A stretch of DNA of 64,000 nt from a virus (taxonomy: Duplodnaviria; Caudoviricetes). Position numbers and translations under genes: made by a program. The notes under the pieces are model-generated. The model made no database searches. It was not told the DNA's origin and saw only the letters and a program-made list of their open reading frames with translations. Of this stretch, positions 400-53,787 are shown one piece after another. The stretch's first letter is position 1; every line of letters starts with the position of its first letter. Location: the IMG/VR virus record IMGVR_UViG_3300032123_000052, positions 64,001 to 128,000 of that record; one strand, written 5' to 3'.

Positions 400-1473
400 T
401 TAATCTTTTTGGCCACTATCAAGCAGCGTTTCAGCCACTTCTTTTTTTATGTCATCAAGAGTTGTCTCTTTGGAATCTGATTTATCTGCATCAGCACCGA
501 AATTAACAGCTATGTCTTTTTGGTCTTCAATGACTAATGGCATTGACTCTTCATATGTGTCGTCATTAACAGTAGTTTCTAATAATGCATTTCCAGCCAT
601 TTCCAACAATGACAAGCTTTCATTCGAGCCTTTTATTTTCGCTTGCTCTGATTTCATTGCCAACCCTCTTTTGATTGGTTCCATAATTTCGTCTTCAAAC
701 GATTTTGTTGATAGCAGCTCTGAGATGAATATATCTCTGCCGCCTGATTTCATTTTCTTATGAACCAAGTATATCTTGATTCCGAAAAATCCATCAAATT
801 TTAGGCTTTTGCCAGCCTCTCTTTCTTTAATAGCGTGTGCTACATTTAATAAATTCCAATACTTCGCAAGTGAAGACTCTATGCCAATTATTGTATTAAT
901 GGACCGTGTCTCGAACCGGTATGGGTTTGGAGCAAGATCGACAACCGGGAAGCATTTTAGCATTCCTAGAGGCTTGCATTTTTTAGATATGAAATCTGGG
1001 CACTTCTCATGTGTGCACCCTTTCTGTCCATCAAATAGCCGATCAATCCATAAACGATCACCGTCTGGTGAAAATGTTAATTGTCGCGCATTTGTGCCTT
1101 GGCCATGACTTTTACACATTAATCCTTCTGATGTTGAAAACATGGCAAGGCAACTATCCCACATTTCTTCTGGAGTTTTATAAAAGCTCACTAGTTCGAT
1201 GCGACGCGGCATTTTGTTATTTAAAGTTTTTTCTAACTTCTTTTGGATAGGTTCGTTTAAAATCCACCTTTTAATGACAACTTGTGTTTCTGTTGCTCCC
1301 GTACGAGTTGTCTCTGTAATTTCCTTTAACATTCTAAAGAAACCAGCAGCTATAGGGTAATTCTTTTTGTTAGGGCCTTCTCCGGGCGCATAACCTGCAG
1401 AAATTTTACCCCTGAATTTTTCAACCATATTGAGAACCCCATCTTGATTATGGGTCAATCCTTTAATCAACAT
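400..1473 (-). CDS. Recombination directionality factor-like (Gp3-like) phage protein
   Basis: GKISAG..P...FFR N-terminus, C-x4-CP-x6-CKPLGML Cys cluster and YRFETRSINT segment resemble the Gp3-like/RDF family; acidic C-terminus. Confidence 0.55.
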   Translation of the reverse strand: MLIKGLTHNQDGVLNMVEKFRGKISAGYAPGEGPNKKNYPIAAGFFRMLKEITETTRTGATETQVVIKRWILNEPIQKKLEKTLNNKMPRRIELVSFYKTPEEMWDSCLAMFSTSEGLMCKSHGQGTNARQLTFSPDGDRLWIDRLFDGQKGCTHEKCPDFISKKCKPLGMLKCFPVVDLAPNPYRFETRSINTIIGIESSLAKYWNLLNVAHAIKEREAGKSLKFDGFFGIKIYLVHKKMKSGGRDIFISELLSTKSFEDEIMEPIKRGLAMKSEQAKIKGSNESLSLLEMAGNALLETTVNDDTYEESMPLVIEDQKDIAVNFGADADKSDSKETTLDDIKKEVAETLLDSGQKD

Positions 1474-1484
1474 GTCCTCCTTAA

Positions 1485-2288
1485 TTAAAAATCTTCTGTT
1501 TGGCTTTGCGGCTTGGTGGCCACATCGCCATTTTCCTGATTGTCAGCGCCAGCTTCGATAACATCATCTTCCGGTTGAATTGTATCATCGCTCATGGCAG
1601 CGTCGGCAATGTTCTCCGCGTCACCATCTGATATAACCGTTCCATCGGGCCGTTGTCCTCCACTTGCAATTTCTTTCAATTGCTTCGGCTGGTTGGTTAC
1701 CGACTTGTCGGTCGGGCTGGCAGGAAAGATTGAATTGACTCTAAGAGATTCCCTGTTGTTATAGTAATCGTCAACAACCTCGACCATTACTTCGGATTTA
1801 AGGTTATGATCCTTCTTGAGTTTATAAGAATCGTCCTCTTTTTCGAATACCGGCAGGCAGTTTTCTATCAGCCACTCAGCTGTTGCTTTGATATCATCTT
1901 TACCATACAAGGCGACAAGCTGAGGTTTTGATATCCTCGCTATAGCTTCAACCGTTTCCGGTTTTGCCCCGGGCGCAGGTGCCAGTGTTATGTTGTGGAA
2001 CATTGATGCCCCTTTTGGAACAAGCTGAGTTCCATCAACGACCCTTAATGAGACAGTAAGCATGAGAGCTTTCTTTTTTGAACTCTCATACATGTTAGGA
2101 AATGATTTGAATTCATTGTCCTTTTGATAGCCAAATGTCGCAACCTTCATACGGTAACGGCCTGAAATTGCTAAATCAACTCTCTGCTGAGAATCAGCTT
2201 TACTGAAACTATCTTCAACAGCGTTTGCACCTTCTTTACCGTGCTTATTAAAGAATTCAAGCACATTCTTCTGACCAGAATCGTCCAT
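1485..2288 (-). CDS. Putative single-stranded DNA-binding protein
   Basis: Lies in the replication cluster; long acidic tail ending QTEDF, like phage SSB tails; GGAGG RBS upstream. Confidence 0.4.
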   Translation of the reverse strand: MDDSGQKNVLEFFNKHGKEGANAVEDSFSKADSQQRVDLAISGRYRMKVATFGYQKDNEFKSFPNMYESSKKKALMLTVSLRVVDGTQLVPKGASMFHNITLAPAPGAKPETVEAIARISKPQLVALYGKDDIKATAEWLIENCLPVFEKEDDSYKLKKDHNLKSEVMVEVVDDYYNNRESLRVNSIFPASPTDKSVTNQPKQLKEIASGGQRPDGTVISDGDAENIADAAMSDDTIQPEDDVIEAGADNQENGDVATKPQSQTEDF

Positions 2289-9057: not shown

Positions 9058-9223
9058 ATATGCTCCTTTACACGAAAAGGTTGTGAAAACAGTTAATTGG
9101 GAAATAACATCTTCTGTAATTGTTATGTCAGATTTTTTGCAATAATCACATTAGGCGTTTGTCGCAATCACACATTAATGTTATATTATCTATATACCCT
9201 CGTTTTCATTTTCCTAATCAAGG

Positions 9224-12200
9224 TTGCCGTCGATGCCGACAAAAGAACAGAATGTTCTTCGCAGATTATCAGAGATGGAAGCTGATGCAAGAAATAACAC
9301 ATTGATGAACGTTACTGTGGCAGATACGGTAAAGACAATTCTTCATTCGGTTGAAGATGATGATATTAAATTGAGAGTGAATAAGGTATGGATCGATAAA
9401 AAATATGACAATTCCGATATCTCAGCCCAAAAATCAGTAAGAAACAAAGGCAGAATATGGGCAAATGATCTCAGAGCAGATCTTTCAATAATTGACAAAG
9501 CAACCGGCAAAGTGGTTGATAATGTCCCCAGTATTAAAGTTACTACTATTCCAAAAATCACAGACCGTGGAACCTATCTAATAAAAGGTAATGAATATCA
9601 GTTCACAAAACAATCTCGGCTAAAACCGGGAGTATATACCAAACAGCAAGCAAATGGTGAGATCAGCTCTTTTTTTAATGTTGACAAAACAATTGATTTT
9701 GACAGAGGGTTCAACAATAACTTTAAAATAAATTTCATTCCGGAGCGAAAAACTTTTACTATGGGATATGGTAGTAAGAATATCCCTCTTATAAATGCAC
9801 TCAAGGCCGTTGGTGTCACTAGGAATGAGCTTGTAGAACGATGGGGGGAACAGGTCTATGAGGCTAATGCTAAAGCGTATGATAAGCATGAGACCAGAGA
9901 TCAGAACAAATTATATGAGGCAATTTTCGGAAAGCAACCAGATACAGGGTTAAATCCGGAAAATATCAGAAAAGAAATTAAAGAAAGGCTTTTTGACACC
10001 GGGCTCGATTCTGAAACTACAAAAATTACCCTTGGCAAATCATATAAAAATGTAAATAAAGACGCCTTGCTCGATGCGTCAAAAAAGATTATAGATATCC
10101 ATGCTGGAAAGATAGAAGGTGATGATCGTGAAGCCCTTGTGTTCAAATCTTTCTTCGATGTGGAAGATCATATCAGGGAAAAGCTTGTAAAAAATAGTAA
10201 GAAGATTATAAACAACATAAAGTACAAACTTAAGAAAAATAAAACCATTAATAAATCAATCAGCTCACAAGTCTTTGACCCATTCGTTGTCGGCGTCCTC
10301 ACCAACAGCCAGCTTTCAAATCCACCAAACCAGACCAACCTCATGTCTATTATTGGTGAAAGTAATAAATATACTGTTATGGGGGAGGGTGGCATAGGAA
10401 CCTCAAATGCTATTACAAATGAAACGCGCCAGATTTCTAATAGCGAGGCCGGATATTTTGATCCGCTTCATACTCCAGAAGGCCCTGGGATAGGAATTGC
10501 TGTTCACAATACAATGGATGCTGTTAAGGTCGGAACTGATATTTATTCAAAATATCTCACCACTAATGGTGAGAAGATTTTGTTGAAGCCTACAGAAACA
10601 TGGGACAAGAATATAGCATTTCCTGATGAATATGATTTATCAAAGCAAAAACCGAAAGCAAAATCAAGAAAAGTAAAGGTAATTAGAAAAGGTAAGCTCG
10701 CCGAAATGGCAGCTTCAAAGGTTGATGCTATTATTTCAAGCCCAGTCGGACTATTTGACACTTCAGCTAATTCTATACCATTTCTTAATTCTATTCAAGG
10801 GAACCGTGGCCTTACCGCCTCCAAAATGCAGGAACAGGCACTTCCTTTAAAAGATCGGGAAAAACCCTTGTTTAACATTGTTGATGAGAAGGGTAATAGT
10901 ATAAATAAAATTCTTGCAGGATCAATGGCGTTGCCAAAATCTTCTGTTGATGGCGAGGTGACAAAGGTAACATCTGAAAATATAACTGTTACTGATAAAA
11001 ATGGAGAAAAGCATAGGACGCAACTTTATAATAATTTCTCTATGAATGCAGAAAGCTTTTTGCATAATACCCCAGTTGTAAAAGAGGGTGACTCTATTAA
11101 AAAAGGTGGCCTACTTGCTGATAATAATTTTACAAAAAATGGCCAAGTCGCAATTGGTGCGAATCTCAGGACTGCCTATTTGCCATACAAAGGATATAAC
11201 TACGAAGACTCGGCAATTATGTCGGAAAGCGGCGCTAAAAAACTCACATCTGAGCATATGTACGATTTCAAAACCAAGAGATCATCAAAGGGTGTTTTCT
11301 CAAGAGAAAAGTTCAAAGCGTATTATCCGGAAGAGTTGAGCGCAAAACAGGGTCGCAAACTCGATAAGGATGGCGTGGTTAAAATTGATCAAAAGGTCGA
11401 TCGTGATGATGTATTAATTGCTCATATGGAGCATAAACCACCGACGGCAGATGATATTGCGCTTGGGCGTCTTGACAAACAGCTTAAGAGGGACATGTCG
11501 AACAATGCTCTCAAATGGAATAAGGATGTTGTTGGCACCGTTATAAATGTCGAGAAATCGGGGAACAGCGTCGTCGTCAGTGTTAAAACAGATGAGCAGC
11601 TTAAAGTCGCTGATAAGATATCCGGGCTTCATGGCAACAAGCACATTATATCAAAGATAGTTCCAGATAGTGAAATGCCTTTCAACCCTGAGACTGGTAA
11701 GCATATAGAGCTTACCATGAATCCGATCGGTGTATCAAATAGGATTAACACCTCTCAACTTCTTGAAAATGCTGCTGGCAAAATTGCAGCGAAGACCGGT
11801 GAGCAATACAAGATTCACAATTTTTCAGGTGATGACAACTCTAAAAAAATGATGACTGATCTCAAAAAAGCAGGTCTGTCTGATAAAGACATTCTGGTTG
11901 ACCCGGAAACAGGAAAGCCGCTTCTGAACCCTGTTGCCAATGGTGTGTCAAATATACTCAAGCTGGAACATGTTGTAGACCATAAATTTTCTGCACGATA
12001 CAAAGAAGGGTATGATGCAAATGAGCAACCGGTCACCGGGGGCAAGACTGGTGGTAAGAATCTCGGCCGAATGGAAATGTCTGCAATGCTTGCTCGCGGC
12101 GCCAATGAGAATCTTCGTGAGATGTTTGAAATTAAGGGCCAAAAGAATGATGAATTCTGGAGAGCAATGGAGACAGGCCAGAGCTTGCCACCACCGAAAA

Positions 12201-15200
12201 AAGCGTTCGTCTGGGATAAAATGCTTGCCATGATGGCTGGTGCCGGCATCGATGTCGAGCAGAAAGGTAAGACGTTTGCTTTAAGACCAATGACTGATGC
12301 TGAAATTGTTGAGCGATCCCGGGGCGAGTTAAAACGGCCAGATTTGACATATCGAAAGAAAGATCTTGCCCCTATGAAGGAGGGTTTGTTTGATCCGGTT
12401 AAAGCAGGCGGATTGTTCGGAGATCACTACACTCATTTTAAACTTTCAGAAAAGGTGCTCAATCCTATAACTGCACCTGCAGCAGCTGCACTAATTGGCC
12501 TTCCGGTAAGTAAAATGAATGAAGTCATTTCTGGTAAAAAGTTTGTAAATAAAATAACCGGCGAAATTGTTAAACCAGGTGCACAGAGTGCCATATCGGG
12601 AAGTCCTGCAATAGAACTATTGCTTGGGCGAGTAAAGGTTAACAAAGAATTGGCAAATACTCAAGATATGGCAAAACGTATTACTAATCCATCAGAGTTG
12701 AATAAAGCCCATCGTAAGATCCGGTATCTTAAATCGCTTCAAGAAAACAAAATGAAACCTACCGATTATATGGTGTCCAATATGCTTGTAACACCATCGA
12801 AGTATAGGCCGGTTGTTACTATGGGTACAGACAATACGGTCATTCTTTCGGATATAAATGATTTATATCAACAGACATCACGGACAAGCAGTGCGCTTAA
12901 AGACCTTAAGGAACAAACAAAGGGTATTGGAAGTGAAGATATTGAGAACCTTCAGCTTGCTGAAATCAGGGGTGCACTTTATGCTGATGTGAAGGCTGTT
13001 TCCGGCCTTGCAGAGCCAACTTCATATTTACATAGAGTAAGGAATAAAAAAGGATTCATTACTCAGATAGATGGTGGCAAAACGAAACAAACGAAAGAGG
13101 GATTTTTCCAGGATAAGGTTTTGGAGCGTAGGCAGGATCTTGTCGGCAGATCAACTATTATTCTAAATCCGAAGCTTGGTGGTGACGAAATCGGCATTCC
13201 GAAAGATATGGCTAGTCAGATATTTCAGCCATTTATTATGCAGAAAATGGTAAGTTGGGGATATAAACCATTAGAAGCTCAGAAGCATATAAAAGACAAT
13301 AGTCCGATATTTGATAGGGCAAGGCAGGTGGTGGCTGATGAGAGGTTAGTGATAGCGAATCGCGCCCCGAGCCTTCATCGATGGAATATGACGGCATTTA
13401 AGCCGAAGCTAACTGATGGAAAATCTATAGAAGTACCATCTGTTGTAGTAAGTAAAAATTTTGGAGGAGACATAGATGGCGATACGTTCCAAATTCATAC
13501 CCCAGTAGGTAAAAAAGCTTTAAGAGAAGCTGAGACAATGAAACCTTCGGCATCAATGTTGAAAACAGGGTATGATTCTGTGCTTAACACACCAAGTATG
13601 GAGTTGGTAGCTGGTGCGTGGTTGGCGTCTAAAGGTAAAGGTGGTAAGAGTACCGGTTTCAAATTTAAAAACCTTGACGAAGCTAGATACTCTTTTAATA
13701 ACCACCATTTTACTTATGGCGATACCGTTGAGATTAATAGTACCAAAGCACCATTTGGTATACACGAAATAAACTCAGCTGCACCTGATGATGAAAAGCG
13801 TTGGGGTGTCGAACTTAACACTAATAATGTTGAAAGTTGGATAAAAGATGTCACCAAAAAACATAACGGCAAAATTGCTCTCGGTCTCGCTGATAAAATA
13901 AAAAAGGTTGGAGAAAATTATGTTACGCAGTATGGATTTACACTTGGTGTGTCTGACACTATTGTAGATGATTCAATAAGAAAACCAATTATCCAAGAAG
14001 CAAAAGCAAAAGCAATTCCAGGCCATGATGATAGTGTTGTTAGGGCGTATTTACAGGCAAAAGAAAAGGGACAAAAGGCTCTTAAGAAAAAATATGGAGA
14101 GAACACTATGCTCGGCATCGGAATATCTTCCGGAGCCGGAAAAGGAATTGGGAACATGACGGCAATTACATTTATGCCAGGAATAGTAACCGACGCAAAT
14201 GACAGGCCGATTCCAATTCCTATTGAGAAATCCTATTCTGAGGGTCTTGGTACTTTTGATTATTGGGCCGCTGCTCATGGAGCCAGGGGTGGCAATATCA
14301 AGAAATCGGTATCATCATTCAAACCTGGTTGGTTAACAAAAGACTTAATGAACTCGATTTATGATACCAGAATATACAGCGATGACCCTGTTGACACAGA
14401 TGGCCTTGAATATGATGTAAATGATAAAAAGGCTGTAATGAATAGATATCTTGCCCGCGATGTGAAAGATACTGGTGGAAAAATAGTTGCCAAGAGAAAT
14501 GAGCTGGTTGCCAGTGATGTTATCAACAAAATGAATCAGCATAAAATTAAAAAAGCATATATCCAGTCGCCTCTTACTGACCCAAGCCCTGGTGATGGGT
14601 TTTCAAGCTGGTCATATGGAACAGACTACGAGGGTAATAGGCATAATATCGGCGATAACATAGGTGTCATATCCGCACACACGTTGACCGAGCCGTCTCT
14701 TAATCTTGCAATGAAGGCGTTTCATACTGGTGGTGCGCTTGAGGTCGGGAAGAAATCTGCTGGTACTAAATTTGATGTGCTCGATAGAACACTTCGTTTT
14801 ACTAAAAACATCCCGGACAAAGCAACACTTTCCAGCATGGATGGTTTTGTTAAAACGACTTCAAAGTCTCCTATCGGCGGCTGGGACGTTGTTCTATCTA
14901 ATGGCGCGAAAGATGAGTCAAGGTACGTTGATACAAATAACGATCTTCTTGTAAAAAAAGGCGACAAGGTAAGAAGCGGAGACAAAATATCTTCCGGAAC
15001 TACAAGCGCTCATGATATACTTAAATACAAAGGTATGAAAGAAACGCAGAGGTTCCTTGTAAATCAGATAAGCGAAATCAATGAAGGGAAGCTTGACAGA
15101 AGAGATATTGAAACTATTGTGAGAGGCATTACAAACACTACTAGGGTTATTGATCCTGGATCGAGCAATTATACACCACATGATGTTGCACAATTGTCGT

Positions 15201-15571
15201 CAATAGAGTATTATAATAACAACAATGAAAAGGAAGAAGATATCGAGAACGCAGAAGGGGACCATCTTGCCCAGGATTACGGCAGTTATAAAAAACATCA
15301 GAAAATAGATTTCCAGACAATGAACAATCTTGGCAAACAAGGAAATAAACGTATAAAAGTTTTTAAAGATAGAATTAAACACGAGCCATTCCTGACTCCA
15401 GCAGGTATCAGTGCAAAAGCTCAATCTTCAGAGGATTGGGTTGCGCGACTTGCTCACAATCGGATAAAGAAAGTTCTGGAAGAGGGTACGACCCAGGGAT
15501 GGAAAACCACGATTGACCCTATAAGGGGCCATCCCATTCCGGCCTATGTGACAGGAGAATACTCATGGTAG
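9224..15571 (+). CDS. rpoBC: Single-chain DNA-directed RNA polymerase, fused beta and beta' (ATG at 9233 likely start)
   Basis: beta motifs TPEGPGIG, KMQEQALPL, GYNYEDS, DKISGLHGNK, MNPIGVSNRIN, GGKNLGRME; beta' motifs RRQDLVGRSTI, NRAPSLHR, catalytic GGDIDGD (DIDGD at 13469-13483), AAHGARGG, trigger loop TEPSLNLAMKAFHTGG; junction near 12265. Confidence 0.95.
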   Translation: MPSMPTKEQNVLRRLSEMEADARNNTLMNVTVADTVKTILHSVEDDDIKLRVNKVWIDKKYDNSDISAQKSVRNKGRIWANDLRADLSIIDKATGKVVDNVPSIKVTTIPKITDRGTYLIKGNEYQFTKQSRLKPGVYTKQQANGEISSFFNVDKTIDFDRGFNNNFKINFIPERKTFTMGYGSKNIPLINALKAVGVTRNELVERWGEQVYEANAKAYDKHETRDQNKLYEAIFGKQPDTGLNPENIRKEIKERLFDTGLDSETTKITLGKSYKNVNKDALLDASKKIIDIHAGKIEGDDREALVFKSFFDVEDHIREKLVKNSKKIINNIKYKLKKNKTINKSISSQVFDPFVVGVLTNSQLSNPPNQTNLMSIIGESNKYTVMGEGGIGTSNAITNETRQISNSEAGYFDPLHTPEGPGIGIAVHNTMDAVKVGTDIYSKYLTTNGEKILLKPTETWDKNIAFPDEYDLSKQKPKAKSRKVKVIRKGKLAEMAASKVDAIISSPVGLFDTSANSIPFLNSIQGNRGLTASKMQEQALPLKDREKPLFNIVDEKGNSINKILAGSMALPKSSVDGEVTKVTSENITVTDKNGEKHRTQLYNNFSMNAESFLHNTPVVKEGDSIKKGGLLADNNFTKNGQVAIGANLRTAYLPYKGYNYEDSAIMSESGAKKLTSEHMYDFKTKRSSKGVFSREKFKAYYPEELSAKQGRKLDKDGVVKIDQKVDRDDVLIAHMEHKPPTADDIALGRLDKQLKRDMSNNALKWNKDVVGTVINVEKSGNSVVVSVKTDEQLKVADKISGLHGNKHIISKIVPDSEMPFNPETGKHIELTMNPIGVSNRINTSQLLENAAGKIAAKTGEQYKIHNFSGDDNSKKMMTDLKKAGLSDKDILVDPETGKPLLNPVANGVSNILKLEHVVDHKFSARYKEGYDANEQPVTGGKTGGKNLGRMEMSAMLARGANENLREMFEIKGQKNDEFWRAMETGQSLPPPKKAFVWDKMLAMMAGAGIDVEQKGKTFALRPMTDAEIVERSRGELKRPDLTYRKKDLAPMKEGLFDPVKAGGLFGDHYTHFKLSEKVLNPITAPAAAALIGLPVSKMNEVISGKKFVNKITGEIVKPGAQSAISGSPAIELLLGRVKVNKELANTQDMAKRITNPSELNKAHRKIRYLKSLQENKMKPTDYMVSNMLVTPSKYRPVVTMGTDNTVILSDINDLYQQTSRTSSALKDLKEQTKGIGSEDIENLQLAEIRGALYADVKAVSGLAEPTSYLHRVRNKKGFITQIDGGKTKQTKEGFFQDKVLERRQDLVGRSTIILNPKLGGDEIGIPKDMASQIFQPFIMQKMVSWGYKPLEAQKHIKDNSPIFDRARQVVADERLVIANRAPSLHRWNMTAFKPKLTDGKSIEVPSVVVSKNFGGDIDGDTFQIHTPVGKKALREAETMKPSASMLKTGYDSVLNTPSMELVAGAWLASKGKGGKSTGFKFKNLDEARYSFNNHHFTYGDTVEINSTKAPFGIHEINSAAPDDEKRWGVELNTNNVESWIKDVTKKHNGKIALGLADKIKKVGENYVTQYGFTLGVSDTIVDDSIRKPIIQEAKAKAIPGHDDSVVRAYLQAKEKGQKALKKKYGENTMLGIGISSGAGKGIGNMTAITFMPGIVTDANDRPIPIPIEKSYSEGLGTFDYWAAAHGARGGNIKKSVSSFKPGWLTKDLMNSIYDTRIYSDDPVDTDGLEYDVNDKKAVMNRYLARDVKDTGGKIVAKRNELVASDVINKMNQHKIKKAYIQSPLTDPSPGDGFSSWSYGTDYEGNRHNIGDNIGVISAHTLTEPSLNLAMKAFHTGGALEVGKKSAGTKFDVLDRTLRFTKNIPDKATLSSMDGFVKTTSKSPIGGWDVVLSNGAKDESRYVDTNNDLLVKKGDKVRSGDKISSGTTSAHDILKYKGMKETQRFLVNQISEINEGKLDRRDIETIVRGITNTTRVIDPGSSNYTPHDVAQLSSIEYYNNNNEKEEDIENAEGDHLAQDYGSYKKHQKIDFQTMNNLGKQGNKRIKVFKDRIKHEPFLTPAGISAKAQSSEDWVARLAHNRIKKVLEEGTTQGWKTTIDPIRGHPIPAYVTGEYSW

Positions 15572-16404
15572 AAAAAATATCAATTGACTTATCATCAATT
15601 TTAAAATCCGGCAAGACTGTTGGGGATATTTTAGTTAAGCACCCATATTATACATTTGGTGGTCTTGGTGTCGCACTTGGAACATATGGCGGTATAAAAG
15701 AATATAAAAAAGAGATTGAGTTTAAGGCTCCCAGATTAAAATCGGGAGAAACTAAGAGTGACGATTCTTATAAGATGAGAGTAATAAGAAGTCACAAAAT
15801 ACAGCAGAGAGAATTCGATAAAAGTAAACCTACTAAAATTTTGTCAAAAGTTCTTGCTAATATTGGTCTTGGTTTATACACTGGTTATCAGGCTGAGAAA
15901 ATTAATGAATCTCATGAAGAAGCCTTGAATGAAGCGAGAAGATATACTAAAAGAGCTAGGGAGAATTTTAGGGAGCAGTATACTAAAAGAGCTAGGGAGC
16001 ATTTTAGGGAGCAGACTAGAAGGCGTAGTGAAGAATCTAAAAATACTTTCAGAAGTGGGTATAATAGGAGCCGTAGTACCACCCCAGGTACAAGTTCAAC
16101 AACAAATACCGCTGGTAAAAAGTTTAGCGAAACATTAAAGGGTTTTAAGACAAAGACGGAAGCTACATCGGCGTTTAGAAATGCGGCTAAAAAATACCAT
16201 CCTGACAAGGGCGGTAAGGCTGAAGATTTTTATTCTGTAAAAACAATATGGGACGCATTTAAAAATTCGGCTGGGTTTAATAAGTTATCATATTACAAGG
16301 CGTTCCTTGATGAACTTGAAAAAATATCAGGTTGTAAAATTCCACCACAATACTTATCAAAACAAAAGACAAAACCGAAAAAAGCAAAAAAGAGTCCGAA
16401 TTGA
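15565..16404 (+). CDS. Membrane-associated protein with J-domain (HPD) module and DELEKIS tag
   Basis: Two hydrophobic Gly-rich segments; FRNAAKKYHPDKGG; C-terminal AFLDELEKISG and KPKKAKK; start overlaps the RNAP stop. Confidence 0.7.
   Translation: MVEKISIDLSSILKSGKTVGDILVKHPYYTFGGLGVALGTYGGIKEYKKEIEFKAPRLKSGETKSDDSYKMRVIRSHKIQQREFDKSKPTKILSKVLANIGLGLYTGYQAEKINESHEEALNEARRYTKRARENFREQYTKRAREHFREQTRRRSEESKNTFRSGYNRSRSTTPGTSSTTNTAGKKFSETLKGFKTKTEATSAFRNAAKKYHPDKGGKAEDFYSVKTIWDAFKNSAGFNKLSYYKAFLDELEKISGCKIPPQYLSKQKTKPKKAKKSPN
15943..16014 (+). repeat. Tandem duplication, 2 x 36 bp (YTKRARE[N/H]FREQ)
   Basis: TATACTAAAAGAGCTAGGGAG[A/C]ATTTTAGGGAGCAG repeated with one mismatch. Confidence 0.9.
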
Positions 16405-32317: not shown

Positions 32318-32441
32318 CCCTTTATGTGATTAATTGTATTATTATATAAGATAACACAGGGATGGCAAATAATCAATAATAGTTGCAAGCTAATGGCTTA
32401 TATGTTATATTTTTGATAGACCCTTCACTTTGGTGATTATA

Positions 32442-46878: not shown

Positions 46879-49800
46879 ATGCCAACAATTTGGATGGACG
46901 TAGATGCAGCATTAAGTGAAGTGCCAGTTAATATTCTTGCACTAATTGATGACACTGATTTCAAAACAAGAGAAGAGTCTGTCACTTATAATCAAGCCGG
47001 CATGGATCTTGTATGGAATTTTGTATCTACCGCAGGAGTTTTTACTCAAACTGCTGTTACTCCTACATCAGGTGGTGATTATGATTGGGTAAACCAAGGA
47101 AATGGCATATATACAATAGAAATACCTGCTTCTGGAGGTGCTTCAATAAACAATGATATTGAAGGATTTGGATGGTTTGTTGGATATGTAACTGGTATTT
47201 TACCATGGAGAGGACCAATAGTTGGATTTAGAGCTGCTGCACTAAACAACGCTTTGATTGATGGTGGCGATGTTCTTGATATCAATACTACACAATGGAA
47301 TGGTACAAATGTAGCTACTCCTACTGTAGCTGGTGTTCCTGAAGTTGATGTTACTCACATAGAAGGTGCTTCTCAATCAGCAACAGATCTTAAAGATTTT
47401 GCTGATGCTGGATATGATCCTGCTACTAATAAAGTTCAAGGTGTTGTTTTGGTAGATACTACTACAACCAATACTGATATGGTAGGAACTAATGGTGCCA
47501 ATACAACAATTCCTGACGTAGCCGGTATCGCAGCAACTCTTCATGGAATAACAGATGGTAAAATTGATGATGTACAAACAACTGTAGATGCAATAGAAAC
47601 AGACACTCAAGATCTTCAAACACAAATTGGCACTGCTGGTGTTGGCTTAACTGATTTAGGTGGAATGTCTACTGGAATGAAAGCAGAAGTTAATATAGAA
47701 GCCGACGCTGCCTTAACAGACTATGATCCTCCTACAAGAACTGAAGCTACTGCTGACAAAAATGAAATAATTGTAGAAGTTGATGCTAATGAAACTAAAA
47801 TAGATGCAATACAAACAACTGCTAATGCAATAGAGGTGGACACACAGGATATCCAGAATTCTATTGGTATTGTTGAAGATTTAGGCAATGGTACTACGTT
47901 AGCTAAAAACAATAGAGACATTGCAGGTGCCACATTTATTACAGGTACTGATTCAAATGAAGCAATAAGAGATAGAGGTGATACTGCATGGACCACAGGA
48001 GCTGGTGGTGACGCTACTGAAGCTAAACAAGATTCCATAATTGCCACAATCGGTACTGCTGGTGCTGGATTAAATGATTTAGGTGGAATGTCTACAGCAA
48101 TGAAAGCCGAAGTTAATATAGAGGCTGATGCCGCACTATCTGATTATGATCCTCCTACAAGAACTGAAGCTACTTCGGATAAAGATGAAATAATTGTAGA
48201 AATTGATGCTAATGAAACTAAAATAGATGCTGTACAAACTACTGTTGACAATATTGAAACTGATACACAAGATCTTCAAGGAAGATTACCAGCATCATTA
48301 ATTGCAGGTAGAATTGATGCTGATACGACTGCTATTAGTGGTGATGTAACTGCAGCAAACAATCTTGAATTAGACTATGATGGTACTGGTTATGCAAAAA
48401 CAAATTCAATAATTGGCACAACAACAACAAATACCGATATGGTAGGAACCAATGGTGCAAATACAACGGTTCCTGATATTGCTGGTACTGCTGCTACACT
48501 TCATGGGATAACTGATGGTAAAGTTGATGATGTACAAACTACTGTTGACAATATTGAAACAGACACGCAGGATCTTCAAAGTTCAATTGGTACTGTTGAA
48601 GATTTAGGAAATGGCACTACATTGGCTAAGAATAATAGAGATATTGCAGGCGCCACATTCGCAACTGGTACTGATTCAAATGAATCAATAAGAGATAGGG
48701 GAGACGCTGCATGGTTAACTGGCGGTGGTGGAGCAATATCTCAAATAATTAATCCTAATCAAGTTATTCCTATTTCTATAGACCTTGCAAACACATCAAC
48801 TGTTAGACTTGGATTTATGTTAATAAATGCTGTAGATGATCTTCCAAGCACAGCCGAAATAACTCCTGGAACAATAAGTATTGAAAGAAAAGCTATTGGT
48901 GGAGCTTCATGGAGTGCTATTATAACTGATGCTGCATGTAGTGAACAGGCCGGTATGGTTTATTATGATGAGGTTTTTGATACGGGGGCTGGATATGCAG
49001 AAGGTGATTCAATAAGAATAACCTTTAAATCCCAATCAGTTATAGCAGATGCAAATACATTTGAAATTACTGATAGTAATGGTGTAAGTTTTCAAACATA
49101 TATCAGAGAAACAATGAGAGGCACAAATAGTGCAAATACAACAGTCCCTGATATTGCTGGTACAGCAGCTACTTTACATGGAATTACTGATGGTAAAGTT
49201 GATACAGTTGATACTAAGGTTGATACTATTGACACTGTTGTCGATGCCATTAAAGTTGTTACTGATGTTCTTCCAAACGCAGGTGCGTTGACAGATATTG
49301 ATACTGGAATAAACAACATTGAGGCGAAACTTCCTACTAATTATATTATGGGATCCTCTATACAGGCTGATAAAGATGACGAAATCGACTCAATTAAAAC
49401 AACTGTTGAAGCACTGAACAATATCTCATCTGGTGATGTACAAACAGCTTGTGATACCGCGATTACCGCCAATACTGATATTGACAATATCGATTCTGGT
49501 GTTAATAATATTGAAGCTAAACTTCCTACCAATTATATCATGGGATCGTCTGTACAGACTGACAAAGATGACGAGATTGACGCAATCAAAGTAGTTACTG
49601 ATGTTCTTCCAAACTCAGGCGCACTCACTGATATTGATGCCGGTGTAAATAATATTGAAGCAAAACTTCCAAGCAAAACATATCTCACCGGAACTACAAA
49701 TGCTGATGGTGATGTTCAGCTTGATGAGGCAACTGGCGCATTGCCTGCTGGCGCATTCGCGAACCATCCAACTGTTGGTCTTAATGATGACGCTATCACT

Positions 49801-52800
49801 GCTTCAAAATTCGATGAAACTACTGCATATCCTATTGCCTCTGCTGATTCTGGTTCAACTGCCGTTGCAAGAGTTGGGGCTGATGGCGATACCCTTGAAA
49901 CTCTTTCTGATCAGATTGATGGCGTGCAGACAAGTGTTGACGGTATTCAGAATAATACGAAATTTGTTGCTACAGTTCCAACCAACATGCTGATACCTGA
50001 CTCCGGCGACACGATGTACAAAATTACTGCTCACTTTTATGATTCAGATGGCAATATGGAAGATCCTGACAACGACGAAATTAATATCCTTTATGAAGAT
50101 GTGTCAGGCGCTGATAAAGACGCATTTTTCGACGATGCAGGCGGGTCAACTGGCGCAACTGCTGGCGTAATAGATGTGAATATGTGGCAGATGGTAAGGG
50201 CCAGTACAGGTGTTTATGAGTCATATTATAAACTTCCTAATACCGAGACGCCGGAACAATGGACCGCTTCATTTAAGCTTGAGGAGGCGTCTTCGTTGCT
50301 TAATTATTCTCGCAGCACGAATGTTGTCGAAGAGGCCCCTGGCTCGACCACACTGGCTGACAATACGGTGAATAAAGATATTATCGCCGAAGCCCTGAAA
50401 GAACGTGATGTGTCTGGTGCTGGGGCGGTGTCTGGTTCTATTTACCAAGACATAAATGATAATATCGACACGAATGAAACTAAGATTGACACAATATACA
50501 CAGAAGTTGGTTTAATTAAAACTGCAACAGACGCACTGCCTAATGCTGGGGCCCTGACAGACATCGACACTGGCATTAATAACATTGAGGCGAAACTTCC
50601 AAGTAAATCATATATCGCAGGCACAGCCAATCCTGATGGTGATATCCAACTCGATGAAGCAACTGGTGCTCTTGTAGTTGGTGCTTATGCCAATCATCCT
50701 GATGTCGATTTAAACGCTAATCAAAGCGGTGTGACCGTAGGAACAGTTAATGCTCTTGGTACTCAAGCAAAAGCTGATGTACAAGCAGAATGTGATTCTG
50801 CGATTACAGCAAACACCGATATTAACAATATTGACACCGGCGTTAACAACATCGAAACCAAATTGCCATCAAAGTCATATCTCGCAGGAACGGCAAACTC
50901 AGATGGTGATGTTCAGCTTGATGAAGCAACTGGGGCATTGCCAGCCGGTGCATTTACAAATCATCCTGATGTTGATTTGAATGCTGATCAAAGTGCTATC
51001 ACAATTGGGATTGTAAATGCTCTTGGGGCACAAGCAAAATTAGACGTTAATGCCGAAGCCGATATAGCTCTATCAGATATCGGATTAGACCATTTGATTC
51101 AGGTTGCGGTGGCCGGAACTGACGTTACTGACAATTCGATTATAGCACAAATAGTATCAAAGTCGGCAACAGCTGATTGGGACACCTTTGATAATACAAC
51201 AGATGCACTTGAAGCAATTTCTGATTCTGGTGGCGGTGGACTTACAGCGCAGCAGGTTAGAGACGCTATGAAGCTTGCTCCTACGGTTGGAGCGCCAGAT
51301 GTTGGGTCGGTTGACAATCATTTAGATGATATTCAAGCTGTAACAGACAATCTTCCAAACAGCGGTTCTTTAACCGACATTGATACTGGTGTGAATAATA
51401 TCGAAGCGAAACTTCCAACTAATTATATTATGGGATCGTCTGTGCAGACAGACAAAGACGATGAAATCGATTCGATTAAATCAACTGTTGAAGGCTTAAA
51501 CGACCTGTCTGCAGCCCAAGTAAATGCTGAGGTTGACACTGCGTTATCAGATATCCGTCTTGACGAGCTTATGACATCCGCTATTGCAAGCCAGCCGGTT
51601 GCCGGATCAATATTTGCAGACCTGACTGAGGATGATGGTGGAACCCAGAGATTCAACGCCAACGCCCTTGAGCAGGCGCCAACCGGTGGAACCAATCCAA
51701 ATGTTCTGATTGATACAACAATCAACGTCGTTACAGATCAAACTCATTTTACACTTAACTCAGGATCAAACGATGATGATGCTTATAAAAACCAGGCATT
51801 TGTCGTATATGATGCGAGCGATAGTGACTCCCCGTCTATAAGAGTATGTGCTGGTTACGTTGGTTCTACAAGAACTGTAACTCTTGATTCCGCTCCAGAT
51901 TTTACAATCATAAGTGGCGATGGGGCCAAAGCTTTTGTAACCGCTCCTGGAACATCGGCACCAACTGTTGGTCAAATACGGACTGAGATGGATGACAATT
52001 CGACCAAGCTTATCGCTATTGACACTGGTGTTGATAACATTGAGCTAAAACTGCCAACCAATTATATCATGGGATCAAGCGCTCAAACTGATAAGGATGA
52101 TGAAATCGACGCAATTAAGGCGGTTACTGACTTGCTGCCGAACTCTGGGGCGCTTACTGATATTGATACCGGTATAAATGCTATTGAGGCGAAATTGCCT
52201 ACTGATTATATCATGGGATCATCTGTACAAACAGCCAAAGATGATGAAATCGATTCTATCAAATCTACCGTTGAAGGTTTGAATAACCTGTCTGCTGCTG
52301 AAGTAAATGCAGAAGTAGACACCGCACTGTCTGATATTGGATTGGACCACTTGGTGCAAGTTGCTGTCGCCGGAACAGATATCGTAGACAATTCGATTAT
52401 AGCACAAATTGTATCAAAGAGCGCTACTGCTGACTGGGATACATTTGATAATACGACAGACTCTCTTGAGGCTAATACTGATTCATTGTCTATGGTTGAT
52501 GGAAAAGTTGATACTATAGATACTGTAGTAGATGCGATTAAGGTTGTTGCTGACTTGCTTCCGAATGGTGGAGCGCTTACCGATATTGATACCGGTGTAA
52601 ATAACACAGAAGCGAAGCTACCAACAAATTATATCATGGGGTCTTCTGTGCAGTCTGGAAAAGACGATGAAATAGATTCTATCAAATCAACAGTTGAAGG
52701 TTTGAATGATTTGTCTTCAGTTAATGTGCAGGCTGCTTGTGACGCCGCAATAACGGCCAATACTGATATCAATGATATTGATACTGGTGTTAATAATATA

Positions 52801-53787
52801 GAAGCTAAATTGCCTTCGAAAAGTTATCTGACAGGATCAAATAATACAGATGGTGATATCGAACTTGATGAAGCAACTGGTGCTTTTGCAGCTGGTGCGT
52901 ACACTAATCATCCTGATGTGGACTTAAATTCTGATCAGAGTGCAGTAACAATTGGTACCGTAAATGCCCTTGGTGCTCAAGCAAAACTCGATGTGAATGC
53001 AGAGTGCGATACTGCCCTCAGTGATATCGGTCTTGACCATTTGATCCAAGTTGCTGTAACTGGAGCAGATGTAACGGATGACTCAATCATTGCAAACATA
53101 GTTTCTAAAGCGGCAACCCCTGACTGGGACACTTTCGACAATACCACAGATTCATTAGAAGCGATTGTCGATGGAGGTGGGGCTGGACTTAGCGCTCAGG
53201 AGGTTAGAGATGCAATGAAACTCACTCCGACCGGCGGAGCTCCTGCGTCCGGTTCTGTGGATGAGCACTTAGATACCATTATAACAGATGTCGGAACAGT
53301 CGATACTGTTGTTGACGCTATTAAAGTGGTAACCGATGCTTTGCCGAACTCCGGTGCTTTGACAGATATAGATACTGGAATTAATAATATCGAAGCTAAG
53401 CTACCTACTAATTATATCATGGGATCGTCTGTCCAAGCTAATAAGGATGATGAGATCGATGCTATTAAAGTCCGTATTGAACTTGCGCTTCCTAATGCAG
53501 CCCCGAGTGGGGCTGCTGGCCTACCTACAGTTGATGCATCGAACCATATTGTAGGAGTCCAAGGTTCTAAAAATGTATTTGATGATCTAAATGATATTAA
53601 TAATAGTGACATCCTCGGTATGGCTATTGATGGAACTGCCACATTTGCAATAGCAATGAAACAGATATTGGCTTATTGTGGCAATGATATAACCAGATCT
53701 GGCGACGTATACACTTATAGAAATTATGACGACAATGCTAACACTATGGCAATAACAGGCTCGGATTCAGGAAGAGTTCGTTCATGA
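46879..53787 (+). CDS. Giant Asp/Thr/Ala-rich mosaic-repeat protein (tail fibre/whisker-like)
   Basis: 2302 aa; 11 copies of DIDTG[VI]NNIEAKLP-like module and several other 2-3x modules. Confidence 0.8.
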   Translation: MPTIWMDVDAALSEVPVNILALIDDTDFKTREESVTYNQAGMDLVWNFVSTAGVFTQTAVTPTSGGDYDWVNQGNGIYTIEIPASGGASINNDIEGFGWFVGYVTGILPWRGPIVGFRAAALNNALIDGGDVLDINTTQWNGTNVATPTVAGVPEVDVTHIEGASQSATDLKDFADAGYDPATNKVQGVVLVDTTTTNTDMVGTNGANTTIPDVAGIAATLHGITDGKIDDVQTTVDAIETDTQDLQTQIGTAGVGLTDLGGMSTGMKAEVNIEADAALTDYDPPTRTEATADKNEIIVEVDANETKIDAIQTTANAIEVDTQDIQNSIGIVEDLGNGTTLAKNNRDIAGATFITGTDSNEAIRDRGDTAWTTGAGGDATEAKQDSIIATIGTAGAGLNDLGGMSTAMKAEVNIEADAALSDYDPPTRTEATSDKDEIIVEIDANETKIDAVQTTVDNIETDTQDLQGRLPASLIAGRIDADTTAISGDVTAANNLELDYDGTGYAKTNSIIGTTTTNTDMVGTNGANTTVPDIAGTAATLHGITDGKVDDVQTTVDNIETDTQDLQSSIGTVEDLGNGTTLAKNNRDIAGATFATGTDSNESIRDRGDAAWLTGGGGAISQIINPNQVIPISIDLANTSTVRLGFMLINAVDDLPSTAEITPGTISIERKAIGGASWSAIITDAACSEQAGMVYYDEVFDTGAGYAEGDSIRITFKSQSVIADANTFEITDSNGVSFQTYIRETMRGTNSANTTVPDIAGTAATLHGITDGKVDTVDTKVDTIDTVVDAIKVVTDVLPNAGALTDIDTGINNIEAKLPTNYIMGSSIQADKDDEIDSIKTTVEALNNISSGDVQTACDTAITANTDIDNIDSGVNNIEAKLPTNYIMGSSVQTDKDDEIDAIKVVTDVLPNSGALTDIDAGVNNIEAKLPSKTYLTGTTNADGDVQLDEATGALPAGAFANHPTVGLNDDAITASKFDETTAYPIASADSGSTAVARVGADGDTLETLSDQIDGVQTSVDGIQNNTKFVATVPTNMLIPDSGDTMYKITAHFYDSDGNMEDPDNDEINILYEDVSGADKDAFFDDAGGSTGATAGVIDVNMWQMVRASTGVYESYYKLPNTETPEQWTASFKLEEASSLLNYSRSTNVVEEAPGSTTLADNTVNKDIIAEALKERDVSGAGAVSGSIYQDINDNIDTNETKIDTIYTEVGLIKTATDALPNAGALTDIDTGINNIEAKLPSKSYIAGTANPDGDIQLDEATGALVVGAYANHPDVDLNANQSGVTVGTVNALGTQAKADVQAECDSAITANTDINNIDTGVNNIETKLPSKSYLAGTANSDGDVQLDEATGALPAGAFTNHPDVDLNADQSAITIGIVNALGAQAKLDVNAEADIALSDIGLDHLIQVAVAGTDVTDNSIIAQIVSKSATADWDTFDNTTDALEAISDSGGGGLTAQQVRDAMKLAPTVGAPDVGSVDNHLDDIQAVTDNLPNSGSLTDIDTGVNNIEAKLPTNYIMGSSVQTDKDDEIDSIKSTVEGLNDLSAAQVNAEVDTALSDIRLDELMTSAIASQPVAGSIFADLTEDDGGTQRFNANALEQAPTGGTNPNVLIDTTINVVTDQTHFTLNSGSNDDDAYKNQAFVVYDASDSDSPSIRVCAGYVGSTRTVTLDSAPDFTIISGDGAKAFVTAPGTSAPTVGQIRTEMDDNSTKLIAIDTGVDNIELKLPTNYIMGSSAQTDKDDEIDAIKAVTDLLPNSGALTDIDTGINAIEAKLPTDYIMGSSVQTAKDDEIDSIKSTVEGLNNLSAAEVNAEVDTALSDIGLDHLVQVAVAGTDIVDNSIIAQIVSKSATADWDTFDNTTDSLEANTDSLSMVDGKVDTIDTVVDAIKVVADLLPNGGALTDIDTGVNNTEAKLPTNYIMGSSVQSGKDDEIDSIKSTVEGLNDLSSVNVQAACDAAITANTDINDIDTGVNNIEAKLPSKSYLTGSNNTDGDIELDEATGAFAAGAYTNHPDVDLNSDQSAVTIGTVNALGAQAKLDVNAECDTALSDIGLDHLIQVAVTGADVTDDSIIANIVSKAATPDWDTFDNTTDSLEAIVDGGGAGLSAQEVRDAMKLTPTGGAPASGSVDEHLDTIITDVGTVDTVVDAIKVVTDALPNSGALTDIDTGINNIEAKLPTNYIMGSSVQANKDDEIDAIKVRIELALPNAAPSGAAGLPTVDASNHIVGVQGSKNVFDDLNDINNSDILGMAIDGTATFAIAMKQILAYCGNDITRSGDVYTYRNYDDNANTMAITGSDSGRVRS

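Follow-up and report, generated by a model that had tools for sequence, protein, structure and literature searches.

The DNA studied here, referred to below as the window, is a stretch of 64,000 nucleotides corresponding to bases 64001-128000 of the 208,085-bp virus record IMGVR_UViG_3300032123_000052, which CheckV rates as complete. It carries a gene for an RNA polymerase (RNAP) in which the β and β' parts of the cellular enzyme are fused into one chain. The protein contains no cysteine (Cys), and both zinc sites of β' are gone, the clamp ribbon by deletion and the second site (Zn-II) by replacement of its ligands. We consider it likely that the enzyme is carried in the virion and injected as a holoenzyme, a single-chain core with a sigma factor, and that its thiols and zinc were purged to suit exposure, unfolded passage and unaided refolding. 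A sequence-only reading had pointed to bases 12355-14640, which lie inside the RNAP open reading frame (ORF) on the plus strand, and proposed that the enzyme is ejected from the virion.

In the RNAP frame there is not a single TGT or TGC codon, while the two other frames contain 36 and 119 of them, and the translation has 0 Cys in 2115 residues. The mean Cys content over 235 ORFs of the genome is 1.28%, at which the binomial probability of finding none in 2115 residues is 1.6e-12, and the RNAP is the most Cys-depleted ORF of them all. Among 219 homologues from a large protein collection, which align over about 100% of the length at 31-91% identity, the closest 80 (52-91% identical) have a total of 20 Cys in their 163,576 extein residues (0.012%); 70 of these 80 lack Cys altogether. 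The Cys-free state persists across homologues down to 53% identity.

The close homologues also offer an internal control. An intein of about 525 residues with a homing-endonuclease domain is present in 28 of the 80 (P0003-P0074), inserted into the catalytic loop in the arrangement DxDGD-intein-T. The insertion point corresponds to the position after residue 1420 of the window RNAP (nt 13483), whose own gene has no intein. The intein begins with Ser or Cys and apparently ends in Asp, not Asn; Thr serves as the +1 nucleophile. Counted over these 80 homologues, intein sequence amounts to 14,752 residues with 227 Cys (1.54%). In the same genes and the same genomes, inteins and exteins thus differ more than 100-fold. 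This shows that the Cys-free state is under selection, which acts on the mature protein rather than on the DNA.

The genome is that of a tailed phage, with a TerL (phrog_675, 3e-55), homologues of the portal and TerL of Salmonella phage Arash, a tape measure protein and a Baseplate_J protein. In its composition the RNAP resembles the particle proteins, and those ejected from the particle most closely. Next to it in Cys depletion is an unannotated 1108-aa protein with 0 Cys, which heads the tail/baseplate block (genome 190269-193595). The tape measure protein (PF10145; genome 14233-17175) has 0 Cys in 980 residues, a coiled-coil protein of 2302 residues (window 46879-53787) has 7 as compared to about 29 expected, and the Baseplate_J-like protein, with 3 Cys in 1002 residues, is also among the next most depleted ORFs. 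The 1108-aa, tape measure and 2302-aa proteins may likewise be ejected or belong to the tail channel. Cys makes up 2-3% of the replication enzymes of the phage, whose genes lie on the opposite strand, and some other proteins of the genome are CxxC-rich with up to 5% Cys.

The Pfam matches to Rpb2_6 (PF00562, 3.1e-57) and PF04565 (1.2e-07) are both above the cut-off, and Rpb2_3 and Rpb2_6 are followed along the chain by the β' domains Rpb1_1, Rpb1_2 (3e-17), Rpb1_3 and Rpb1_5 (3e-13). Structures in the PDB matched as β chains over residues 80-1040 (E values to 2.9e-71) and as β' chains over residues 1094-1999, the best E value being 1.5e-74. The order of the domains and these matches show that the RNAP is therefore of the cellular, two-barrel type in a single chain. 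The β and β' core domains have one match each in the whole genome, both of them inside this gene. The α subunit (PF01000) had no match in the whole genome, in a search that matched 14 of 14 control genomes; the T7-like RNAP (PF00940) had none there either, but that search was made without a positive control and counts for little. The gene is the sole recognisable RNA polymerase of the phage genome, and as a single chain it differs from the bacterial type, in which separate β and β' chains sit on an α dimer.

In the bacterial polymerases aligned, the large subunit has two four-Cys zinc sites, which matter for assembly and regulation. When the RNAP was aligned with E. coli β' and 12 family members by MAFFT, the segment missing from it was the one that bears C70, C72, C85 and C88 in E. 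coli. The gap spans 32 columns in one alignment and 41 in another, and its exact ends are not fixed. A comparison of the family profile with β' chains of the PDB placed the N-terminal anchors identically, the stretch between them being shorter by about 57 residues. The clamp ribbon is missing from all family members aligned. At Zn-II the E. coli ligands C814, C888, C895 and C898 align to Pro, Pro, Ser and Ser. The sequence-only reading had claimed that the protein is free of Cys, that the clamp ribbon is deleted and that the second site has lost its ligands, and it is borne out on all these points, by the translation and codon count, by the alignment and the profile, and by the four replacements. 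An AlphaFold2 model of residues 1560-1860, made with 32 homologues, has block-mean pLDDT (predicted local distance difference test) values of 81-95 over model residues 141-260, the former zinc site included. The best structural matches of the model are bacterial β' chains, with E values to 3e-17 and TM (template modelling) scores of 0.55-0.61 by query, which suggests that the local fold survives without a metal at the former Zn-II site.

To judge from its sequence, the RNAP is a member of a family of fused β-β' phage enzymes which includes Arash, phage D69 and metagenomic clades. In a FastTree phylogeny rooted on E. coli, with the reference sequences of PMC7481178 left out, the Cys-free sequences form one clade of 48 rows with a support of 100 and a stem length of 0.72, and the window RNAP is nested there. 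The neighbouring clades have exactly four Cys with the spacing C-x(50-67)-C-x6-C-x2-C, which are the Zn-II ligands by alignment, and a single Cys beyond them occurs in just 2 of the tree's 22 metagenomic members of this type. Two more lineages, P0120 and P0112, are also without Zn-II, with other replacements (A/P/S and S/Y/D). The pattern in the tree reads as an early loss of the free thiols and the ribbon in the family and a later loss of Zn-II, which would have occurred at least twice and probably three times. The positions of the gene, of its altered sites and of the gene that follows it are listed in Table 1.

Table 1. Position of the RNAP gene, its catalytic and former zinc sites and the adjoining gene in the window.
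Feature	Window position	Residues	Strand	Remarks
Fused β-β' RNAP gene	9224-15571		+	Single 2115-aa ORF from TTG 9224; 0 Cys
Flanks of the deleted β' clamp zinc ribbon, GLFDPVKAGGLFGDHYTHFKL (GLFDP...HFKL)	12383-12445	1054-1074	+	MAFFT with E. coli β' and 12 family members
Catalytic Mg site, NFGGDIDGD	13457-13483	1412-1420	+	Three Asp kept; aligned to E. coli D460/D462/D464
First Zn-II ligand position, DDPVD	14381-14395	1720-1724	+	E. coli C814 replaced by Pro; DCGT in the distant clade and Arash
Zn-II knuckle remnant, QSPLTDPSPGDGFSSWSYGTD	14564-14626	1781-1801	+	E. coli C888/C895/C898 replaced by P/S/S
Gene with a J-domain signature	15565-16404		+	7-nt overlap with the end of the RNAP gene; 279 aa, two hydrophobic N-terminal stretches

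In the life cycle that we propose, the RNAP would be made late and packed into the capsid with a Cys-free sigma factor. Core and sigma would pass via the tail into the host along with the DNA. Transcription of the first phage genes would fall to the injected enzyme, with no need of the host polymerase, and enzyme made after infection would probably carry the programme on. A phage that makes no use of the host polymerase has to bring in, with its DNA, an enzyme for its first genes. The chain would cross the tail and the envelope at least partly unfolded, and any thiols would there be open to oxidation or to cross-linking by disulfide enzymes. Selection would have removed every free thiol on account of the time for which a particle protein is exposed outside the cell and of its partly unfolded passage. 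A zinc site would lose its metal on unfolding and expose four thiols, which would be why this clade replaced the last zinc site too. A single chain without zinc or an α scaffold could then refold alone after delivery.

The packaging part of this proposal draws on the nearest cultured relative, Arash. When Arash virions purified on sucrose gradients were analysed by liquid chromatography and mass spectrometry, Gp206, the β part, was the top protein with 100% coverage, 128 unique peptides and 3516 spectra (PMC10585845). The rest of β', Gp216, gave 1210 spectra, the sigma factor Gp10 was detected with 100% coverage, and the authors propose early transcription (PMC10585845). The 'structural protein' labels in the GenBank record of Arash disagree with Table 2 of the paper. 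A homologue of Gp10 is found in the genome studied here at 197684-198376 (L018:1435-2127; E 1.5e-17), in the baseplate block as in Arash. This sigma-70-like protein has 0 Cys in 230 residues, and Gp10 has 0 in 234; its match to Sigma70_r3 (7e-05) is below the cut-off.

Ejected proteins of other phages have the same composition. The T7 ejected core proteins gp15 and gp16 have 0 Cys in 2065 residues, as compared to 0.85-2.7% in T7 cytoplasmic enzymes, and N4 gp50, gp51 and gp52 have 0 Cys each, whereas the non-virion RNAPII of N4 has 13 in 673. The statement of the sequence-only reading that the N4 virion RNAP is free of Cys is correct, with 0 Cys in the 3500 residues of gp50 (PMC11445570). The DEV paper regards a near-total Cys suppression as a hallmark of Schitoviridae ejection proteins, and cites as the proposed cause the disulfide-forming enzymes met on the way across the periplasm (PMC11445570).

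Several observations weigh against packaging and injection. The Arash proteome includes 116 of 272 proteins, ribonucleotide reductase among them, and the authors allow for carry-over of abundant enzymes (PMC10585845). The phiKZ virion polymerase keeps 16 Cys in 2614 residues (0.61%), which is about half the density of the non-virion enzyme (33 in 2850, 1.16%), and the latter retains a CxC...CxxC ribbon. The particle-associated polymerase of YerA41 has 16 Cys in 1998 residues and retains both zinc sites, and the enzyme of Arash itself retains Zn-II. Packaging thus does not require the loss of zinc sites, nor does such a loss prove packaging, and our comparison indicates that Cys depletion marks ejected proteins well, though with exceptions. 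Among cultured phages no member of the Cys-free clade was found, the nearest phage records being about 30% identical, and packaging would call for the targeting of a 240-kDa chain to the capsid. Gene order gives no support either. A synteny of RNAP and portal as in Arash and D69 was considered and rejected, as in this genome about 23 kb separate the RNAP gene from the homologue of the Arash portal upstream. Searched against PHROGs and Pfam, 20 neighbouring ORFs had little in the way of matches and the immediate surroundings stayed mostly unannotated, which speaks neither for nor against packaging.

The proposal made from the sequence alone, of an enzyme carried in the head and threaded into the host cell, has partial and indirect support. 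It gains from the Arash virion proteome, the Cys-free ejected proteins of N4 and T7 and the Cys-poor tail proteins of this genome, and loses from the possible carry-over in Arash and the Cys-bearing enzyme of phiKZ. Homologues with Cys or zinc sites had also been named there as evidence to the contrary; the distant homologues do keep Zn-II, which tells in part against the proposal, whereas the close ones are nearly free of Cys.

It is conceivable, although in our judgement unlikely, that the RNAP is instead an intracellular, non-virion enzyme, and that the loss of Cys and zinc guards it against oxidative or thiol stress, or against a shut-off by the phage of the host RNAP directed at its zinc or Cys sites. 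The ribbon and Zn-II are present in the host-type enzyme and absent in that of the phage, and a zinc- or thiol-directed shut-off could discriminate between the two; a shut-off factor was, however, not identified. The contrast between inteins and exteins fits this explanation equally well, as it would fit any selection on the mature protein, and the signal in Arash virions is possibly carry-over. On the other hand, the replication enzymes work in the same cytoplasm and hold their 2-3% Cys, and the depletion is shared by the tape measure and tail-block proteins and by the proven ejected proteins of N4 and T7, which points to a cause linked to the particle.

The remaining explanations have less in their favour. 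Zinc sparing, in which the sites were lost from a scarcity of zinc for the host in a marine habitat and the other Cys were lost incidentally, is in our opinion improbable. Both zinc sites are gone, which speaks for it, but it leaves unexplained the absence of non-ligand Cys over all the extein residues of the close homologues and the purge of all other Cys in relatives that keep Zn-II, and the CxxC-rich proteins of the genome have kept their content. The probability that the lack of Cys is due to chance, or to codon usage or base composition without functional meaning, is negligible. The genome is AT-rich (about 39% GC) and the protein rich in Lys (11%), but this is set against the binomial probability, the Cys codons in the other two frames and the persistence of the state at 53% identity, and the Cys content of the inteins as compared to the exteins refutes it. 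Injection of a virion-carried holoenzyme is the explanation that we regard as likely.

The start of the gene is probably not the listed TTG. The homologues begin with MPTKEQ, which corresponds to ATG 9233, and AAGG is found nine bases 5' of this codon; the product would then be 2112 residues long. A match to Peptidase_M23 in β' (window 14828-14995, residues 1869-1924, E 2.9e-4, below the cut-off), which is also precomputed for many homologues, was rejected as a peptidase and is most likely a fold resemblance to the barrel-type insert of β'. A k-mer search upstream of genes showed that the regions before the RNAP gene (9141-9190) and before ORF 32430 (32368-32416) share the motif AATAATCA, followed about 30 nt later by the extended -10-like TGTTATATT. 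The pair may be a common promoter type, but these motifs are only hints and assign no expression class. Another motif from the same search, GGTATAACTAT, was uninformative within the window.

The product of the gene that overlaps the end of the RNAP gene has the J-domain signature KKYHPDK, its HPD read directly, and its match to Pfam DnaJ (E 3.9e-4) is below the cut-off. In a contig of the distant four-Cys clade, a DnaJ-family gene is located two genes past the RNAP (L025:17512-18591), while no DnaJ gene was found within 8 kb of the RNAP in contig L024, from another clade member. The arrangement is suggestive of a possible partner of the RNAP, a putative membrane-anchored recruiter of Hsp70 beside a chain that may need to be pulled in and refolded. 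All this can be combined into a more far-reaching scenario, which we put forward only tentatively and hold to be possible rather than likely. This would be the first cellular-type RNAP to work without structural zinc or thiol, a self-refolding single chain evolved for passage through the tail, from which first the ribbon and then Zn-II (twice or three times) were shed convergently, and the translationally coupled membrane J-domain protein might recruit the host Hsp70 for pull-in and refolding, like the import motors of organelles.

A deep clade without either zinc site implies that the fold is held in another way, and it is a natural test case for the purpose of these sites. The combination of a mature protein purged of Cys with a normal content in its own inteins could serve as a marker, from sequence only, of injected phage proteins, and the rule of Cys suppression, so far known from N4-like phages, would be extended to polymerases of the cellular type. 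If packaging is true, widespread large phages begin their infection with their own holoenzyme of core and sigma, which bears on their escape from the control of the host. A polymerase in a single chain, insensitive to redox conditions and poor in metal cofactors, could also be handy for biochemistry.

As compared to bacterial RpoB and RpoC, the window RNAP has the same set of domains, the same fold and the DxDGD loop, but these are separate chains, with 22 Cys in E. coli and both zinc sites, where the phage has one chain without either site. Cultured members of the same fused β-β' family are Arash, with Gp206 and Gp216, and the Vibrio phages D69, D148 and D181. The homology of the Arash enzyme covers 88% of the length, with an identity of about 30%. 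The Arash enzyme has no clamp ribbon either and is accompanied by the homologous Cys-free sigma, but it has 5 Cys in 2131 residues (one in Gp206 and the four of Zn-II in Gp216), and D69 is alike, as compared to 0 in the window RNAP. In Arash and D69 the gene is split after about residue 1525 and adjoins the portal gene, whereas the window gene is intact and away from the portal. The gap at the split holds nine genes in Arash (L001, 130093-141261), two small ORFs in D69 (L002, 143288-150339) and a homing endonuclease in D148 and D181, which suggests that a mobile element was inserted into an ancestrally fused gene.

The family is probably the same as mReC, described in 2020 as large uncultured tailed phages with cellular-type β and β' from aquatic and other metagenomes (PMC7481178). 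The β and β' homologues of mReC are near enough to the cellular ones for the COG and Pfam models, and the clade comprises 97 contigs (PMC7481178). A term search of the full text of PMC7481178 found no cysteine, zinc, inteins or virions, and 'fused' or 'fusion' for the crAssphage enzyme only. A 2020 review of jumbo-phage polymerases makes no mention of cysteine or zinc.

The virion RNAPs of phiKZ and AR9 are likewise homologues of cellular β and β' without α, carried in the head and injected (PMC7598289), but they consist of four or five polypeptides and have a second, non-virion polymerase alongside. A tblastn search with the window RNAP did not match the phiKZ and AR9 polymerases, which are too divergent. 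N4 gp50 is a T7-like single-subunit polymerase within a polyvalent protein. Like the window RNAP it is giant and Cys-free, and it is packaged, ejected and transcribes the early genes; it is not a homologue, since the window RNAP is a two-barrel enzyme of the cellular type. Known virion polymerases are N4 gp50, the vRNAP of phiKZ and AR9, that of crAss-like phages (gp66) and that of P23-45 (TMP-RNAP). Virion polymerases as such, and the suppression of Cys in N4-like ejection proteins, are already known. What appears to be new is the full purge of Cys in a polymerase of the cellular type, the stepwise and convergent loss of both of its zinc sites, and the contrast between intein and extein as an internal proof of selection.

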